A stretch of DNA of 34,979 nt from Acidobacteriota bacterium (GTDB lineage Bacteria; Acidobacteriota; Vicinamibacteria; Vicinamibacterales; 2-12-FULL-66-21), in NCBI GenBank assembly GCA_020200195.1, contig JAIVJE010000292.1:9567-44545 (forward strand). Reading direction: 5' to 3'. The position numbers and the translations under genes were made by a program. Positions within the stretch are counted from its first letter, which is position 1, and each line of letters begins with the position of its first letter. Under the pieces are notes generated by a model. The model worked only from the letters and a program-made list of their open reading frames with translations. It was not told where the DNA came from and made no database searches. Below, piece after piece: positions 25,391 to 31,328 of this stretch.

Positions 25391-26548
25391 TCAGCGGTGT
25401 CGCTCCAGGTCGGGCATGACGTCGAGAGGCTCGACTGGCGATGTGCGCGCCTCGGTCGCCTGCCGCAGCAGGTCGGCGACGAGCGCGTCGCGGCGGTGCA
25501 CGAGCTCGCGGCGAGGCCGGCGACTTCGCTCGGAACCGACGGCATACTCGCAGAACAGCGGAAATGCGATCGTGGAATCGCAGTAAGCGACAACCGTGTC
25601 CGGCAGCACTCCTGGGTTGACCTTGCCCCAGCTCACCGCCTCGGCCGGCGTGGCACCCGACAGGCCGCCCCACACGACCTGGTCTGTCGTGATCTGGATG
25701 AAGTAGTCGTTGCCGCCCTTGGGGATTCCGTAGACTTCCCACAACGTCGGCTGCCCCTGGAGGTAGAAGTTCTTCGGCGAGCCGCCGCCCAGGATCACGC
25801 ACCCATTCTGCTTCGCCGCCAGGATGATGGCGCACACCTCGTTGACGTCCTTGTTCGGATCGATCATGAACGTGCTGCCGTTCATCAACTCGTGGTACGC
25901 GATGTTCATGCCGATCGAGCTGTCGCCCGGCGACGACGTGTAGATGGGCACGCCAGCCTGCGCGGCGCGGGCGACGACGGAGTACTCCTCGCACCCGGGA
26001 TGGAGATCGAGCAAATCCTGACCGAGGCGGAAGTGGAACTCGGCGGTGGACATCGGGCCGGCCAGTTGCGCGCGCACGAGAAAGTCCCGGATGTACGTGT
26101 CGGTCTCGAGGAGCACCGTCGACGGAAACAACACGTCGTAGATGCGGATAATCCCATGCTCGTACAGGTCGACATCGTTCAGGAACGGCGAGCCGCGATG
26201 AAGTGTGAAATTCAGCGCGTAATGCAGGTCGTGGTACAGGTTCGCGCCCGTGCTGATCACGAAGTCGATCAGACCGCGCTCCATCAGCTCGATCACGCAG
26301 CCGCCGAGGCCGGCCGGTGTCAGCGCGCCCGCAATGGTCAGACCGATGGTCGTGTCGTTCTCCGCGGCAAGCATCTTGTCGGTGTAGATGTGGCACGCCT
26401 CCGACAGACGGCCGGCGTTGAACGCCTGGAACCCGCCGTCAATGAGGTGCCGCACATCGGCGCTGCCGCGCGGCCGGTAGTAGGTAATGGGCTTGCCGGT
26501 GAGGTAGTTCTTCTTGCCACCCGGGGCACCGGGCGCTCGGTGGGGCAC
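25391..26548 (-). CDS. Deoxyhypusine synthase-like protein (polyamine aminobutyl transferase family)
   Basis: ISTGANLYHD, GGGSPKNF and GGLSGATPAEAVSWGK (catalytic Lys); GGAGG then GTG 26548. Confidence 0.92.
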   Translation of the reverse strand: MPHRAPGAPGGKKNYLTGKPITYYRPRGSADVRHLIDGGFQAFNAGRLSEACHIYTDKMLAAENDTTIGLTIAGALTPAGLGGCVIELMERGLIDFVISTGANLYHDLHYALNFTLHRGSPFLNDVDLYEHGIIRIYDVLFPSTVLLETDTYIRDFLVRAQLAGPMSTAEFHFRLGQDLLDLHPGCEEYSVVARAAQAGVPIYTSSPGDSSIGMNIAYHELMNGSTFMIDPNKDVNEVCAIILAAKQNGCVILGGGSPKNFYLQGQPTLWEVYGIPKGGNDYFIQITTDQVVWGGLSGATPAEAVSWGKVNPGVLPDTVVAYCDSTIAFPLFCEYAVGSERSRRPRRELVHRRDALVADLLRQATEARTSPVEPLDVMPDLERHR

Positions 26549-26722
26549 TGAGCAACCTCCAATTCGCGGTCGTTCGATTAGCTTAGCATCACTGACCTGC
26601 AGGAACGCGGCGTATTGGCCGAAAACCCTTGACAGCGGGCGTATTCGGAGCCAACGTACCACGCTTTCGCGACGACAGCATGAGCATGTTTCCGGAGTGG
26701 CGACGTGGAACCAGGCACTGGC

Positions 26723-27130
26723 ATGGATACGATGTGGCTGGCCGCGCTGGCCGCCGGCGCGCTGGTGTTCATCGCCGTCCTGTTCTTCTGGTTCAAGGGG
26801 CGGAAGATGCCGGGGGCGCACGTATTTCGGGCCAGTCGGCTGAGTCGCGGCAACCTGCTGTTGCCGGCGCAAATGGGAGTCAGGCCGACGAGCGTCGTGC
26901 ACTACAAACCGGAAGTCGCAGGCGGGCGCGAACATTCCATGCACATCGCACACGTCGCCTCGGTGCTGATCGATCGCAATCTCTTCTTCTCGGACGTGCT
27001 GATCGAAAGCTCCGGCGGGACCAGCCCCGTGCGCTGCCACGGCCACCGCAAGGCTGACGCCGTCGAGATGAAGCGACTCATCGAGCAATATCAGTCGGAG
27101 TATTATCGCGGACAGCATCATGGGCAGTAA
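26723..27130 (+). CDS. Membrane-anchored hypothetical protein, possibly with a bacterial PH-like fold
   Basis: N-terminal TM, then a beta-rich segment (VASVLIDRNLFFSDVLIESSGG) and a C-terminal helix; overlaps the next start. Confidence 0.7.
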   Translation: MDTMWLAALAAGALVFIAVLFFWFKGRKMPGAHVFRASRLSRGNLLLPAQMGVRPTSVVHYKPEVAGGREHSMHIAHVASVLIDRNLFFSDVLIESSGGTSPVRCHGHRKADAVEMKRLIEQYQSEYYRGQHHGQ

Positions 27131-28469
27131 GGCCGACAACGTGCCCGCGGCAGGCCGGCGCCCCCCCGATCCGTCGGAGGTCGAAGCGCGGTTCCAGTCG
27201 CTCGTACAGTCGCCGCTGCGGGCAGCGCTGCTGCGGTTTTTCTGCGCGCGGCCGGACGAGTCGTTCGACGTCGAGGCACTGATGCAGACGTTCGGCCGCA
27301 TGCGGCTGGACGTCGAGAACTGCGTCCGGGAGCTCGTCGCGTTCGGTGTCGCGAAGCGCATGCCGAGCACGGGCGCGGCGCGCTACGCCGCGGCGGAACC
27401 GGAGATTGAGGGCGTCCATCACCTGCTCGACGAGTTCCTGGAACGCCGCGCCACCGTCAGCCATGAGGACCGCTCGCCGGCGGTTCAGCGTTTTCGCGAG
27501 ATGATCGGCCGCGACGAGAAAATGCTCGTCGTGTTCGAGTGGATCCGCACCGCGGCGAAGTCCGATATTTCGGTGCTGATTCTCGGCCCCACCGGCTCGG
27601 GCAAGGAAGTCGTCGCGCGGATGATCCACGAGTTGAGCCGCCGCGCCACGCACAAGTTCCAGGCGGTGAATTGCGCGGCGCTGCCCGACACGCTTTTCGA
27701 ATCGGAGATCTTCGGCTACGAGAAAGGTGCGTTCACCGGCGCGCACGACCGCAAGCCGGGGCGGCTCGAGCTGGCGAACAACGGGACCCTGTTCCTCGAC
27801 GAAATCGGCGACATGTCGCTCATCGCGCAGGCGAAGCTGTTGCGCGTGCTTGAGGAACGCCGCTTCGAACGCCTCGGCGGCAATACGTCAATCGACGTCA
27901 ACTTCCGGCTCATCTCCGCGACCAACCGCCCACTCGATCAGTTCGTCCGCGACTCGCGGTTCCGCGAAGATCTGTATTACCGGGTCAACGCCTTCGCCAT
28001 CCGGCTGCCTTCGCTGCGCGAGCGCGCGAGCGATATCCCGGTACTGGCGCAGCGCTTCCTGGCGCGCTACTGCGCCGCGAACGGCTTAGCGCTCGACGGC
28101 AAGTCGTTCGCCAAAGAAGCGACCGAGCTCCTGATGCAATACCACTGGCCCGGCAACATCCGCGAGCTCGAAAGCACGGTGTCGCGGGCGGCGCTCTCGT
28201 CACCCGGTCGCGTGATCCGCGCCGGAGACGTGGAGTTCCTGCACGCCAGCGAGGCGCCAGTGCACGCCGCCCACGACCGGCTGCCCTCGCTCGCCGACGC
28301 CGAACGTGCGCACATCGTCCGCGTGCTCGAGAGCGTCCATTGGAACAAGAAACAGGCCGCGGGCGTGCTCGAAATCAGCCGCGGGACGCTCTATCGCAAG
28401 ATTGTCGAGTACGGCTTGGAGTCCGAGGCAAAACCGTCGCGGAATAGAACACATCGCCCTGCGAACTGA
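27120..28469 (+). CDS. Sigma54-dependent activator (AAA+ and Fis-type HTH) with an N-terminal winged-helix-like domain
   Basis: [39 protein letters not shown] and C-terminal HTH ([11 protein letters not shown]); no receiver domain. Confidence 0.93.
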
Positions 28470-28506: not shown

Positions 28507-28612
28507 CGGTGTGTTAAAACGGACCATAAACCCGGTTCATACTCTACGTGAACGTCCTTTGTTTTCAGCCGTTTACGGCAGCTTTTGCCGACGGTGGGCC
28601 AAAACGGGACAC
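28507..28612. promoter_or_regulatory. Paired putative enhancer (UAS) sites
   Basis: CGGTGTGTTAAAACGGACCAT (28507-28527) and CGGTGGGCCAAAACGGGACAC (28592-28612), 85 bp apart, upstream of the -24/-12 box. Confidence 0.5.
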
Positions 28613-28720
28613 CGTGGATGCTGGCCGCCTCCTGATCTGCCTCTTTACCCACCGAACAAAACATCCATAAGTCTCTGAGAAGATGGCGTTTAGCAACTGT
28701 CGTGTCGCCTGGTGGGCGCG

Positions 28721-28736
28721 CGGCAGATCACTTGCA
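28721..28736 (+). promoter_or_regulatory. Sigma54 -24/-12 promoter
   Basis: CGGCAGATCACTTGCA = GG-N10-GC, matching YGGCAC-N5-TTGCW, downstream of a sigma54 activator gene. Confidence 0.75.
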
Positions 28737-28797
28737 CTGGCGCACTCGTTAAATCTCTGATTATGCGGACACTTCCTCTCATGCCGGCGCGCATCTG

Positions 28798-28836
28798 ATG
28801 ACGAACGTCACCCGCAAGGCCGTCTGGGGATTCTGA
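28798..28836 (+). CDS. Candidate small peptide MTNVTRKAVWGF
   Basis: ATG 28798 to TGA 28836, with a TGATG overlap onto the downstream start. The frame is open back to 28753 (ISDYADTSSHAGAHL...). Confidence 0.4.
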   Translation: MTNVTRKAVWGF

Positions 28837-31328
28837 TGGTCGCCTTGCCGGCTCGCGCGCGGTTGTACGTCTACGCAGTCATTGCGCTGGGAGGGGTGTT
28901 GCTGTGTCGGTTTTTTCCTCTCGAATCGTTCAGAAAGCCTGGCCTATTCCTGGGGCTCCTGGCGCTTTCGTCGATCACCTCCGTCTTCAAGGTGAATCTG
29001 CCGCTCGCGCGCACCGGCGGATCGACGATGTCAGTCTCGTACGCCGTGGACTTCGCATCACTCCTGCTGCTCGGCCCGAACGAGACGATGCTCGTGGCCG
29101 CAGCCAGCGCGTACAGCCAGTGCACGTTCCGCATCAAGGAACGCAATCCGTTTCATCGCACGCTCTTCAGCATGGCGTGTCTGATCATCACGGTCCAGGC
29201 GGCAGGCACGGTCTATGCGGCGCTCGGCGGCCTTCCCGGACGCGTTGACTTCGGGACGCTGGCCACGCCGCTGGTTGGGGCCGCGACCACGTACTTCGTG
29301 ATCAACACGTTGACCATCGCGACCGCGATCGCCTTGTCCACGCGGCTCTCGATCGTCAAAATCTGGAACGAGAATTTCCTGTGGAGCGCCCCCAGCTATT
29401 TTGTCGGGGCGGGTGCGGCGGCGGTAGCCACGTGGATGGTTGTCGGCCTCTCGGGTCACTGGCTCGCGCTGGCGCCACTCGCGGCGGCGCCGCTGTATCT
29501 GACGTATCGCACCTACAAAGTCTATCTGGGCCGGATCGAGGACGAGCAGCGCCACGTCAGCGAGATGGCGGACCTGCATCTCGCCACGATCGAAGCACTC
29601 GCGCTGGCGATCGACGCGAAGGACCAGACCTCCCAGTCGCACATCCGCCGAGTGCAGCTCTATGCCGCCGAGGTCGCGCGGGCGATGGGGATGTCGGAGA
29701 ACGACATTCAGGGCGTCAAGACCGCGGCTCTGCTCCACGACATCGGGAAGCTTGCGGTGCCGGAACACATCCTGTCGAAGCCCGGACCGCTCACGCCCGA
29801 AGAGTTCCAGAAGATTCGCGCGCATCCGAAAGTCGGCGCCGACATCGTCAGCTCCGTCCCCTTCCCCTATCCGGTAGCTCCGCTGATTCTGAACCATCAC
29901 GAGCGGTGGGACGGCAAGGGCTATCCGGCGGGTCTGCGCGGGAACGACATCCCGCTCGGCGCACGCATTCTGGCCGTTGTCGACTATTTCGACGCGCTGA
30001 TGGCGGACCGCCCGTACCACAAAGCGATGGGATTCGACGCCGCCGTGGGGTTGCTGCAGCAGGAAGCGGGCAAGGGTCTCGATCCCAGCGTTGTGATGAA
30101 ATTCATCGACCTCCTCCCCGCGCTGCAGGCGGATGCGGTCAAGCTCGACCAGAGCATCCGCAAGCCTGCACCAGCTGAAAAGCTGCCCGCCGTCGGCGGG
30201 CCGGCGACCGGGCTCACGCCAGAGCCGAGCAAGAAGAATGTGTTCGACGACATCGCGCTGGCGCATCGGGAGATCTACGCGCTGTATGAAATCGCGCAGG
30301 CGATGGGCACCAGCCTTGGCGTCTCGGACACGATGGCACTGATCACGGCGAAGCTGAGCAACCTCGTTCCGTTCTCCTGCGCCGCGCTCTTCCTGTACGA
30401 CGAAGAAACCGAAATGCTCCGCTGCCGCTTCGCCACCGGCACCGACGCTGACATCGTCCAACAGGTGTCGGTGCAGAGCGGCGAAGGGTTGACGGGGTGG
30501 GTTGCGCGCAACCGCCGGCCGCTCGTGAACGCACGGCCCAGCGCGGACCTCGAGGCCGCCGGGCTGCCGTCGACGACGACGAGCCTGCAGTCGGCGCTGG
30601 TGTGCCCGTTGCTCTTCAACGAGCGGTTCATCGGAACGCTGTCGGTCTACCACGTGGACGCCGCGTTCTACCGCGACGACCACAGGCGTCTGCTCGATCG
30701 CGTGTCCGAGCAGGCGGCCGCCGTCATCAACAACTCGATGCTCTTCGAGCAGACGCAGGAGGATTCGCTGACGGACCCGTTGACGGGGCTCCCGAACACC
30801 CGGTTCCTGTTCATGCACCTCACCCGCGAGCTCGCGCGAGCCGAGCGCCTGAAGTCCGAGATTTCGCTGATGGTCATGGACCTCGATCATTTCAAGGAGA
30901 TCAACGACAGCCACGGTCACCACGTGGGCGATCGCGCGCTGTGCGAGGTCGCGCGCGTGCTCCGCGCTGCCATCCGGCCGTACGATATCTGCGTTCGCTA
31001 CGCCGGCGACGAGTTCATCGTGGTACTGTCCGGATGCGGCGCGGACGAAGCCGAGCAGAAGCGTCAGGAGTTGCAGAACAACATCGACGAGGTGTTCTTC
31101 GAGGCGCGGCCGGGCAAGCGCCTGGCACTGGGCATCAGCGTAGGTACCGCCGTGTTCCCGCAGGATGGTGAATCCTACGAGGCGCTGTTGGCCACGGCCG
31201 ACAGCCGGATGTATCAGGACAAGTCCGGTCGCAAACGCCGCGACAGCGCCCAGCAGATCCCGAGACCGTCCGCGTACCCCGAGCTGAGCGAATTCGACAT
31301 CCAGCGCGCCGTGGCGGGCATCCTTTAG
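28836..31328 (+). CDS. Multi-TM sensor with HD-GYP, GAF and GGDEF domains (c-di-GMP turnover)
   Basis: Hydrophobic N-terminal ~230 aa; LLHDIGK and HHERWDGKGYP; a GAF region; DPLTGLPN and RPYD...YAGDEF. Confidence 0.93.
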   Translation: MVALPARARLYVYAVIALGGVLLCRFFPLESFRKPGLFLGLLALSSITSVFKVNLPLARTGGSTMSVSYAVDFASLLLLGPNETMLVAAASAYSQCTFRIKERNPFHRTLFSMACLIITVQAAGTVYAALGGLPGRVDFGTLATPLVGAATTYFVINTLTIATAIALSTRLSIVKIWNENFLWSAPSYFVGAGAAAVATWMVVGLSGHWLALAPLAAAPLYLTYRTYKVYLGRIEDEQRHVSEMADLHLATIEALALAIDAKDQTSQSHIRRVQLYAAEVARAMGMSENDIQGVKTAALLHDIGKLAVPEHILSKPGPLTPEEFQKIRAHPKVGADIVSSVPFPYPVAPLILNHHERWDGKGYPAGLRGNDIPLGARILAVVDYFDALMADRPYHKAMGFDAAVGLLQQEAGKGLDPSVVMKFIDLLPALQADAVKLDQSIRKPAPAEKLPAVGGPATGLTPEPSKKNVFDDIALAHREIYALYEIAQAMGTSLGVSDTMALITAKLSNLVPFSCAALFLYDEETEMLRCRFATGTDADIVQQVSVQSGEGLTGWVARNRRPLVNARPSADLEAAGLPSTTTSLQSALVCPLLFNERFIGTLSVYHVDAAFYRDDHRRLLDRVSEQAAAVINNSMLFEQTQEDSLTDPLTGLPNTRFLFMHLTRELARAERLKSEISLMVMDLDHFKEINDSHGHHVGDRALCEVARVLRAAIRPYDICVRYAGDEFIVVLSGCGADEAEQKRQELQNNIDEVFFEARPGKRLALGISVGTAVFPQDGESYEALLATADSRMYQDKSGRKRRDSAQQIPRPSAYPELSEFDIQRAVAGIL

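Follow-up and report, generated by a model that had tools for sequence, protein, structure and literature searches.

A stretch of 34,979 nucleotides (nt) of contig JAIVJE010000292.1 from an Acidobacteriota bacterium (assembly GCA_020200195.1), referred to here in its full length as the window, carries a micro-open reading frame (micro-ORF) of 12 codons directly in front of the gene for a predicted membrane-bound cyclic di-GMP (c-di-GMP) enzyme. Judging from its substitution pattern among relatives, we consider that the micro-ORF is a genuine, anciently conserved coding micro-gene, whose product carries a K-A-V-W-G core resembling one unit of the repeat tail of an S8 peptidase encoded in the related operons. 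We tentatively favour, slightly over a cis-acting leader peptide, a free micropeptide that would mimic one tail unit and act on the proteins of the module. The window's genome (65% G+C) belongs to the order Vicinamibacterales, and its assembly is 82% complete, so that statements on single copies hold for the assembled part.

The 366-nt spacer between the end of the activator gene (28469) and the start of the enzyme gene (hereafter the sensor) holds a direct repeat, a -24/-12 box and the micro-ORF. The elements described in an earlier sequence-only reading of this DNA, namely an enhancer-like pair, a -24/-12 box, a tiny ORF, a TGATG overlap and a multi-domain protein, are all present where it had placed them:

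27120-28469, + strand: sigma-54-dependent activator (bacterial enhancer-binding protein, bEBP), 449 amino acids (aa); Pfam Sigma54_activat (2.3e-67), AAA_lid_14 and HTH_8
28507-28526, + strand: enhancer-like site, copy 1, of the TGT-N11-cCA type (direct repeat family D2)
28592-28611, + strand: enhancer-like site, copy 2 (D2), ~120 nt before the -24 element and aligning with a conserved block
28721-28736, + strand: -24/-12 (sigma-54) promoter CGGCAGATCACTTGCA, assigned on sequence; box conserved in relatives
28798-28836, + strand: micro-ORF, 12 codons plus TGA, MTNVTRKAVWGF, with a TGATG overlap with the sensor start
28836-31328, + strand: predicted membrane c-di-GMP enzyme, 830 aa; Pfam MASE9, HD_5, GAF_2 and GGDEF

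The micro-ORF starts with the ATG at 28798, its K-A-V-W-G codons occupy 28816-28830, and its TGA is at 28834-28836. For comparison, 80 related loci were gathered from species-representative genomes, and 74 of them plus the window (75 in all) had at least 150 nt upstream of the orthologous gene; all compared loci lie within the Vicinamibacterales, and all sequences are metagenome-assembled genomes (loci carry L numbers and contigs of the window's genome C numbers). An ORF ending in [KRQ]-[AGV]-[VI]-W-[GS]-x(1-3)-stop, with its stop -13 to +4 nt from the main start, was found in 28 of the 75 loci: 26 carry K-[AV]-V-W-[GS], one carries RAVWS, and one is doubtful (L096, where the match is probably the C-terminus of the upstream gene). 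Because such a peptide pattern fixes codon positions 1 and 2 by design, the search was repeated with the 15 nucleotides of the core in any frame. With 3 mismatches or fewer, this 15-mer occurred 5-19 nt before the orthologous start in 24 of the 75 loci, while none of 300 control windows inside the gene matched it equally well. Twenty-nine of the 30 mismatches in these 24 loci fall at third codon positions, and the other one is a first-position change (Gly to Ser, L100). Because the mismatches are nearly all at third positions, the micro-ORF is taken to be conserved as a protein; amino-acid conservation upstream of the orthologs, on which the sequence-only reading had let its proposed peptide stand or fall, was thus found together with synonymous variation. 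The codons flanking K-A-V-W-G are essentially unconstrained among the carriers, and the stop codons in the window group are 19 TGA, 5 TAG and 1 TAA, in addition to 3 longer tails.

The micro-ORFs fall into a short class of 10-14 residues (M-x-I-R-[RH]-K-A-V-W-G-x(x), with a GGAGG-like site upstream) and a long class of ~18-25 residues ending in S-K-A-V-W-G-[CGS]; the start codons of the longer ones are those that we infer. In three loci (L062, L076, and L082), the ATG overlaps the stop of the upstream peptidase gene (ATGA). The sequence-only reading had also considered a longer product opening at 28753. This is not favoured. Relatives start with ATG or GTG, 4-8 codons ahead of the K and usually preceded by a GGAGG-like site, in agreement with the ATG at 28798, and they lend no support to a longer product with a non-ATG start. 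A frameshift fusion to the sensor or to the peptidase was likewise not needed, since separate frames with their own starts and their own Shine-Dalgarno (SD) sequences were seen. Eight micro-ORF products of 22-40 aa matched no family in Pfam and NCBIfam at E<=10 (products of at least 20 aa were scanned), and the micro-ORF peptide has neither a hydrophobic leader nor a signal peptide. No RNA run was listed as containing the region, and the word shares of the sequencing runs were only small.

On the gene tree (FastTree only, 72 orthologs, unrooted and giving no direction of change), the micro-ORF occurs in the deepest clades and in many shallow ones, a distribution that takes 9-12 gains or losses at the least, as compared with an average of 21.4 for shuffled labels. 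The simplest reading of this distribution is that the micro-ORF is an old gene, lost many times. Decayed-looking remnants were seen before the sensor start in loci without a micro-ORF (L046, L047, and L089, the last equal to L021), for example the 7-codon MTLGFFA in L046 and ...MEARGF ending the peptidase frame in L089; the remnants in these loci would fit repeated loss.

The micro-ORF and the sensor appear to be tied in translation. GGAG, GAGG, or AGGA precedes the start of most short-type micro-ORFs, and an SD sequence before the micro-ORF is absent in the window and in the other peptidase-less loci. A canonical SD core was found before the sensor ORF in 4 of the 28 loci with a micro-ORF (absent in 24) versus 24 of the 46 loci without it (absent in 22), and the window's sensor start (ATG 28836, the first ATG, GTG, or TTG after an in-frame stop) has no canonical ribosome-binding core. 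Because the micro-ORF stop abuts the sensor start and the sensor is mostly without its own SD sequence, ribosomes finishing the micro-ORF most likely start the sensor (translational coupling), so that both products would be made together. The window's leader RNA (28746-28900) folds no better than shuffles (z = -0.47); terminator or anti-terminator hairpins as in attenuation were not seen in it, the micro-ORF abutting the main start.

The sensor has a marginal MASE9 match (26.4 bits versus a cut-off of 24.3), followed by strong matches to HD_5 (8.7e-46, 156 bits), GAF_2 (2.7e-17, 63.7 bits), and GGDEF (1.2e-41, 142.6 bits). Its HD and HHERWDGKGYP motifs are intact, and all of the 72 orthologs have an intact HD-GYP motif. 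At the GGDEF signature it has RYAGDEF (window 30900-30920), with RPYD (RxxD) five residues before; AGDEF in this form is present in 68 of the 72 orthologs, with the RxxD site intact. Phosphodiesterase activity may be the main function of the protein, its cyclase domain being regulatory or weakly active. It has exactly the architecture MASE9-HD-GYP-GAF-GGDEF listed in the census of Galperin and Chou (bioRxiv 10.1101/2021.11.05.467447), where the ligand of MASE9 is proposed to bind within the membrane; the portion of the census at hand describes no upstream micro-ORF, peptidase partner, or ligand (bioRxiv 10.1101/2021.11.05.467447). When the 40-aa product of L103 was co-folded with its own MASE9 domain (residues 1-245, 63-row alignment), the score was 0.00, a result that weighs neither way.

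The second partner is a secreted-type peptidase. An S8 peptidase gene lies between the activator gene and the place of the micro-ORF in 67 of the 75 loci (Peptidase_S8 2e-50 for L031), and its product has a signal-peptide-like N-terminus as read by eye. In 35 of these 67 the peptidase ends in a tail of at least three [ILVT]-[IV]-W-x units, with up to ~14 units of (C)(D/E)NIVWGT, which bears out the suggestion in the sequence-only reading that such HD-GYP genes lie near S8 peptidases with VWG repeats. The peptidase gene is missing from the window's operon and also from L093, L098, and L121 (one clade), L107, and L114, and four of these six peptidase-less loci (the window, L093, L098, and L121) keep the micro-ORF. 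The L093/L098/L121 clade preserves the core, changed only synonymously, and the remainder of the peptide is no longer recognisable there. The 18 nearest relatives of the window have a peptidase without repeats and no micro-ORF.

As for the structure of the tail, an AlphaFold2 model of the L156 repeat tail (14-row alignment) reached a mean predicted local distance difference test (pLDDT) value of 47.5 and showed only 4-residue strands, one per repeat. A sub-threshold Pfam match to the grass antifreeze beta-roll (E 7.5e-4, 20 bits versus a cut-off of 30) and an Atlas pointer to Hexapep (16% of one cluster, score 0.88) are leads only. In one clade without the micro-ORF (L064, L073, L054, L065, L075, L077, and L080), the peptidase ends in V-W-G-A-P-A-I-R-R-x-S-R-..., a conserved basic tail, its stop overlaps the sensor start, and the I-R-R stretch is similar to what the short micro-ORFs have in their N-terminal part.

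The window's genome encodes three further S8 peptidases with VVWG or NIVWG repeat tails, the best being 49-57% identical to the operon type:

C87:8279-9328, + strand: S8 peptidase fragment with repeat tail
C110:902-2815, - strand: S8 peptidase with repeat tail
C361:11212-13266, - strand: S8 peptidase with repeat tail

The gene 3' of the C87 and C361 peptidases encodes a product containing ...VTLRELRLSDAP...FERFIEW, with a weaker likeness at C110 (...GVMLREFQQADAP...). This pattern is typical of RimJ/RimL-type N-acetyltransferases, and the candidate RimJ/RimL-like gene would give this type of peptidase another partner.

A comparable arrangement was found in paralogous modules. Thirty paralog loci were obtained from 150 genomes of the order, 29 of them usable. 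Their MASE9/HD-GYP/GAF/GGDEF proteins are ~35% identical to that of the window and have an S8 peptidase upstream (Pfam), whose tail is a very regular hexapeptide array (NTIVWG, NSLVWG, NAIAWT, DNIIWT, DTLVWA, and others). An ORF of 8-10 codons, M-x(1-3)-[IL]-I-[VIA]-W-x(1-2)-stop, was present in all 21 loci with the peptidase or its repeats upstream and in none of the 8 loci without the peptidase. Examples are MTPIIVWS (4 loci), MRIIVWTD, and MKPIIVWG, and L149 has L for W. All of these ORFs start with ATG, nearly all have GGAG or GAGG 5-10 nt upstream, and they lie 0-57 nt before the sensor start with TAA, TAG, or TGA as stop. NTIVWG, DTIVWG, and SLVWG arrays each accompany MTPIIVWS; since the ORF stays constant while the neighbour's repeat unit differs, it is not a drifting leftover of the array. 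In L103 and L106, which come from the deepest clade of the window's own orthogroup, both motif types stand in one ORF of 35-40 aa, with a paralog-type start (M-x-x-R-V-T-I-I-W) and a window-type end (K/R-A-V-W-G/S).

The paralog leaders have features of their own at the RNA level. In 16 of 20 loci the rare codon ATA encodes the first Ile, the stop is followed by a conserved CCGATAA (L140-L169; e.g., L136:7427-7503), mostly in frame as stop-(x)-A-D-N/K, and in many loci a GC-rich hairpin follows CCGATAA and ends shortly before the sensor ATG. The CCGATAA and hairpin part has the look of a structured leader, or of a re-initiation site bridged by a hairpin. In L140, the only locus inspected in this respect, the sensor ATG has no SD sequence. 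As side observations, the paralogous MASE9 genes of L136-L139 have a third-position G+C of 0.55-0.60 versus 0.8-0.9 in their neighbours, and L136 carries a divergent gene for a family-5 solute-binding (oligopeptide-type) protein upstream of the peptidase, a position taken in L137, L138, and L139 by an ORF of 517-600 aa.

In the reading that we tentatively favour, the ancestral unit would be a sigma-54-driven operon of activator, secreted S8 peptidase with a [D/N]-x-[I/L]-V-W-G tail, micro-ORF, and MASE9 enzyme, from which the window's lineage would have deleted the peptidase gene, leaving the micro-ORF and the sensor directly behind the promoter. The conserved product would be a free peptide that reproduces a single tail unit on its own (K-A-V-W-G in the window's module, I-I-V-W in the paralog module) and that imitates the repeat tail or competes with it at one of the module's proteins, the likeliest being the co-made MASE9 domain. 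A peptide of 8-12 residues, basic and then hydrophobic, that is synthesised next to the nascent sensor could get to an intramembrane site, and its action on MASE9 would set c-di-GMP turnover. We lean to a free peptide because the product equals one repeat unit of the neighbouring protein and the paralog ORF is present exactly where the peptidase is, and because the micro-ORF is kept with synonymous changes in the peptidase-less L093/L098/L121 clade.

Several points weigh against this. Of the 75 orthologous loci, 47 lack the micro-ORF, among them all of the 18 closest to the window's protein, and the sensor therefore works without it. No MASE9 residues track its presence, only variable loop positions being different. 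The raw association of micro-ORF and repeat tail (19 of 35 loci with a repeat tail versus 4 of 32 without) was not significant in phylogenetically independent contrasts (7 pairs), and we would not rely on it. An 8-12-aa cytoplasmic peptide with no signal peptide, exporter, or modifying enzyme nearby would be an unusual and unstable effector, and the fixed position 5' of the sensor, the tiny size, and the conservation of the C-terminal part only would fit a leader peptide equally well.

Such a cis-acting leader peptide is the rival that survives best, and we regard it as possible without being probable. The micro-ORF, with a ribosome-binding site of its own, would load ribosomes that re-initiate on the sensor, and its nascent C-terminal residues would make the ribosome pause in elongation or termination and tune the amount of sensor, perhaps in answer to a small molecule or to tryptophan supply; the likeness to the repeat would then be inherited from the final repeat unit and would not point to a common binding partner. 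In its favour, in each of two paralog groups the ORF always stands directly 5' of a MASE9 gene (-13 to +4 nt and 0-57 nt), it has only 8-12 codons, and only the residues nearest the stop are conserved, the N-terminal part being free in length and sequence. The assembled contigs of the window's genome hold no second copy, beyond the window's own micro-ORF only chance-looking out-of-frame matches to either type were found, and none of the three other repeat-tail peptidases (C87, C110, and C361) has a micro-ORF behind it. The scarcity of SD cores before sensors that follow a micro-ORF points the same way, as does the third paralog group (54% identity), which has a repeat peptidase upstream but no micro-ORF and shows a GGAGG- or GAGG-like site before the start in 3 of 4 sequences inspected by eye. 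The rare ATA, CCGATAA motif, and GC-rich hairpin of the paralogs, and the retention of the micro-ORF in the four peptidase-less loci, are also consistent with a leader peptide. However, neither the stop codon nor the residue in front of it is constant, in contrast to known termination-arrest peptides, no particular structure is seen in the window's leader RNA, and the peptidase-less loci have no SD sequence before the micro-ORF, so that ribosome loading is not obviously improved. A leader peptide also leaves unexplained why the neighbour's repeat unit is copied and why the paralog ORF is lost where the peptidase is missing (0 of 8). To our knowledge, no known leader peptide copies a repeat unit of a neighbouring protein, as this micro-ORF does.

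It is rather improbable that the peptide serves the repeat-tail S8 peptidases themselves, as a pseudo-substrate or inhibitor before export, as a primer or cap for tail folding, or as a substrate released as a signal, its adjacency to the sensor being mere operon order. The identity of its motif with the tail unit, the way in which paralog ORF and peptidase strictly go together (21 of 21 loci with the peptidase, 0 of 8 lacking it), and the three repeat-tail S8 peptidases still encoded by the window's genome (C361, C110, and the C87 fragment) agree with such a role, but those three have no micro-ORF behind them, purifying selection acts on the micro-ORF where the operon's peptidase has been deleted, and the signal-peptide-like N-terminus of the peptidase has no counterpart on the micropeptide, which would place the two in different compartments unless the peptide is exported. 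Finally, it is very improbable that the window's ORF is an undecayed relic of the peptidase deletion with no present function beyond TGGGG as perhaps a weak ribosome-binding site: the window is indeed the sole carrier among the 19 rows of its own clade, no SD sequence precedes its micro-ORF, the W-G codons stand 6-13 nt ahead of the main ATG, and relatives show degenerate remnants (L046 and L089), but start, frame, core, and stop overlap are intact over a terminal branch of 0.13 changes per site, purifying selection is clear in the family and also in another peptidase-less clade, and a ribosome-binding role would not keep K-A-V constant with only third positions varying.

The sigma-54 promoter claimed in the sequence-only reading holds: the box at 28721-28736 has its counterpart, nGGCAn-N5-TTGCA, 3' of the activator gene in relatives; of the 75 loci, 70 had an activator match, and 68 of these 70 show the box. 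The sigma-54 consensus has GG and GC doublets 10 nt apart in a TGGCAC-N5-TTGC-like box, and CGGCAGATCACTTGCA agrees with this doublet spacing; we infer that transcription starts near 28746-28748. The window's genome encodes rpoN (Sigma54_DBD 221 bits, contig C311). The activator consists of an AAA+ sigma-54 interaction domain and a Fis-type helix-turn-helix (HTH), with no receiver domain (Pfam); its N-terminal ~125 aa (residues 1-127) matched no Pfam family at E<=10, and the whole protein is 85.6% identical to the activator of the L031 locus.

The proposed pair of enhancer-like sites stands in part. Both copies are present as candidate sites, forming a direct repeat (28507-28522 and 28592-28607) with a spacing of 85 nt. 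Across 68 aligned promoter regions, a TGTnnCnAAACnGnACA-like block (TGT..C.aaAcgG.A...CA), ~110-130 nt upstream, is at least 60-80% conserved, and copy 2 aligns with it, whereas copy 1 has no matching column block in this alignment and is the weaker of the two. The spacing of the block is, we assume, reminiscent of TGT-N10-ACA activator sites. A perfect 9-nt inverted repeat, TGATCTGCC and GGCAGATCA, was also seen at 28633-28641 and 28722-28730; the reverse complement of the -24 element thus recurs 80 nt upstream, which may be chance or may bear on the promoter architecture.

The activator gene is itself preceded by a further gene:

26723-27130, + strand: membrane protein of ~135 aa, 61.7% identical to its L031 counterpart

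The order of this gene and the activator is kept in L031-L035, L038, and L039. The L031 ortholog has a bPH_2 match below the cut-off (E 7.5e-4), and the window's copy is without a match. On the opposite strand (25391-27370, -), a 659-aa ORF contains a deoxyhypusine-synthase-like gene, with the Pfam match confined to residues 316-608. Ten neighbour ORFs chosen from ~19.9-34.9 kb gave Pfam matches to BON, SDR, amidases, QueC/QueD, and DtxR-type families, one ORF having no match; no modifying enzyme, dedicated exporter, or Opp-type importer was found by Pfam among these ten.

Several known systems share parts of this arrangement. Regulatory leader peptides (TnaC, SpeFL, and the Erm and Cat leaders) are likewise tiny ORFs directly before the regulated gene, and TnaC-type leaders also show conservation near the C-terminus including a tryptophan, with a downstream gene that depends on upstream translation; the present case differs in that no terminator or anti-terminator was seen in the window and that the last residue and the stop are not conserved. 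Small-protein modulators of sensors, such as MgrB or SafA with PhoQ, are comparable as very small co-regulated products, here proposed to act on the membrane part of the sensor, but MgrB and SafA are transmembrane helices of 30-65 aa encoded elsewhere, while the present products have 8-24 aa, are not transmembrane, and are translationally coupled. The pheromones of Firmicutes (RRNPP, ComS/XIP, SHP, and Phr) resemble the micro-ORF in being short, with a variable N-terminus and 5-8 conserved C-terminal residues including tryptophan, and in having an adjoining receptor gene and a secreted S8 protease, Phr being matured by subtilisin-type proteases. Their receptor is a cytoplasmic TPR protein, whereas here it would be a membrane c-di-GMP enzyme in another phylum with another cell envelope, with no linked exporter or Opp-type importer in the window and no hydrophobic or Sec leader. 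In LapD/LapG, too, a c-di-GMP protein of the inner membrane has as its genetic partner a protease that is secreted or periplasmic. However, LapG is a cysteine protease and LapD a degenerate GGDEF-EAL protein with a periplasmic domain, as opposed to an S8 serine peptidase with a repeat tail, an intact-looking HD-GYP domain, and a MASE9 domain with only short loops. By these likenesses, the micro-ORF would work like a leader peptide or a small-protein sensor modulator, and we do not place it in any named family. No published description of the micro-ORF, the repeat tail, or the peptidase-micropeptide-MASE9 module was found in a search mostly outside subscription journals.

Membrane domains of the MASE type count among the most widespread sensor modules in c-di-GMP enzymes, and a signal is known for almost none of them. 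The comparison of genomes supplies a concrete candidate open to chemical synthesis, namely a core of five residues, invariant throughout an order of bacteria abundant in soil. Micro-genes of 8-12 codons escape gene callers, and the finding of two related micro-ORF families, each with a matching repeat-tail protease, means that such ORFs can be found by conservation alone. In its widest form, the proposal would be a new peptide-to-c-di-GMP module of soil Acidobacteria, in which the polyvalent W-hexapeptide tail of a secreted S8 peptidase and a one-unit peptide of 8-24 aa, made 1:1 with the receptor, would both address an intramembrane MASE9 pocket as agonist and competitor, proteolytic release or occupancy of V-W-G units setting c-di-GMP; as a whole we hold this to be unlikely. 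If true, it would provide the first MASE9 ligand and a role for one of the smallest functional bacterial genes, and even if the micro-ORF is cis-regulatory, a leader peptide that copies its neighbour's repeat unit would be of a new type.

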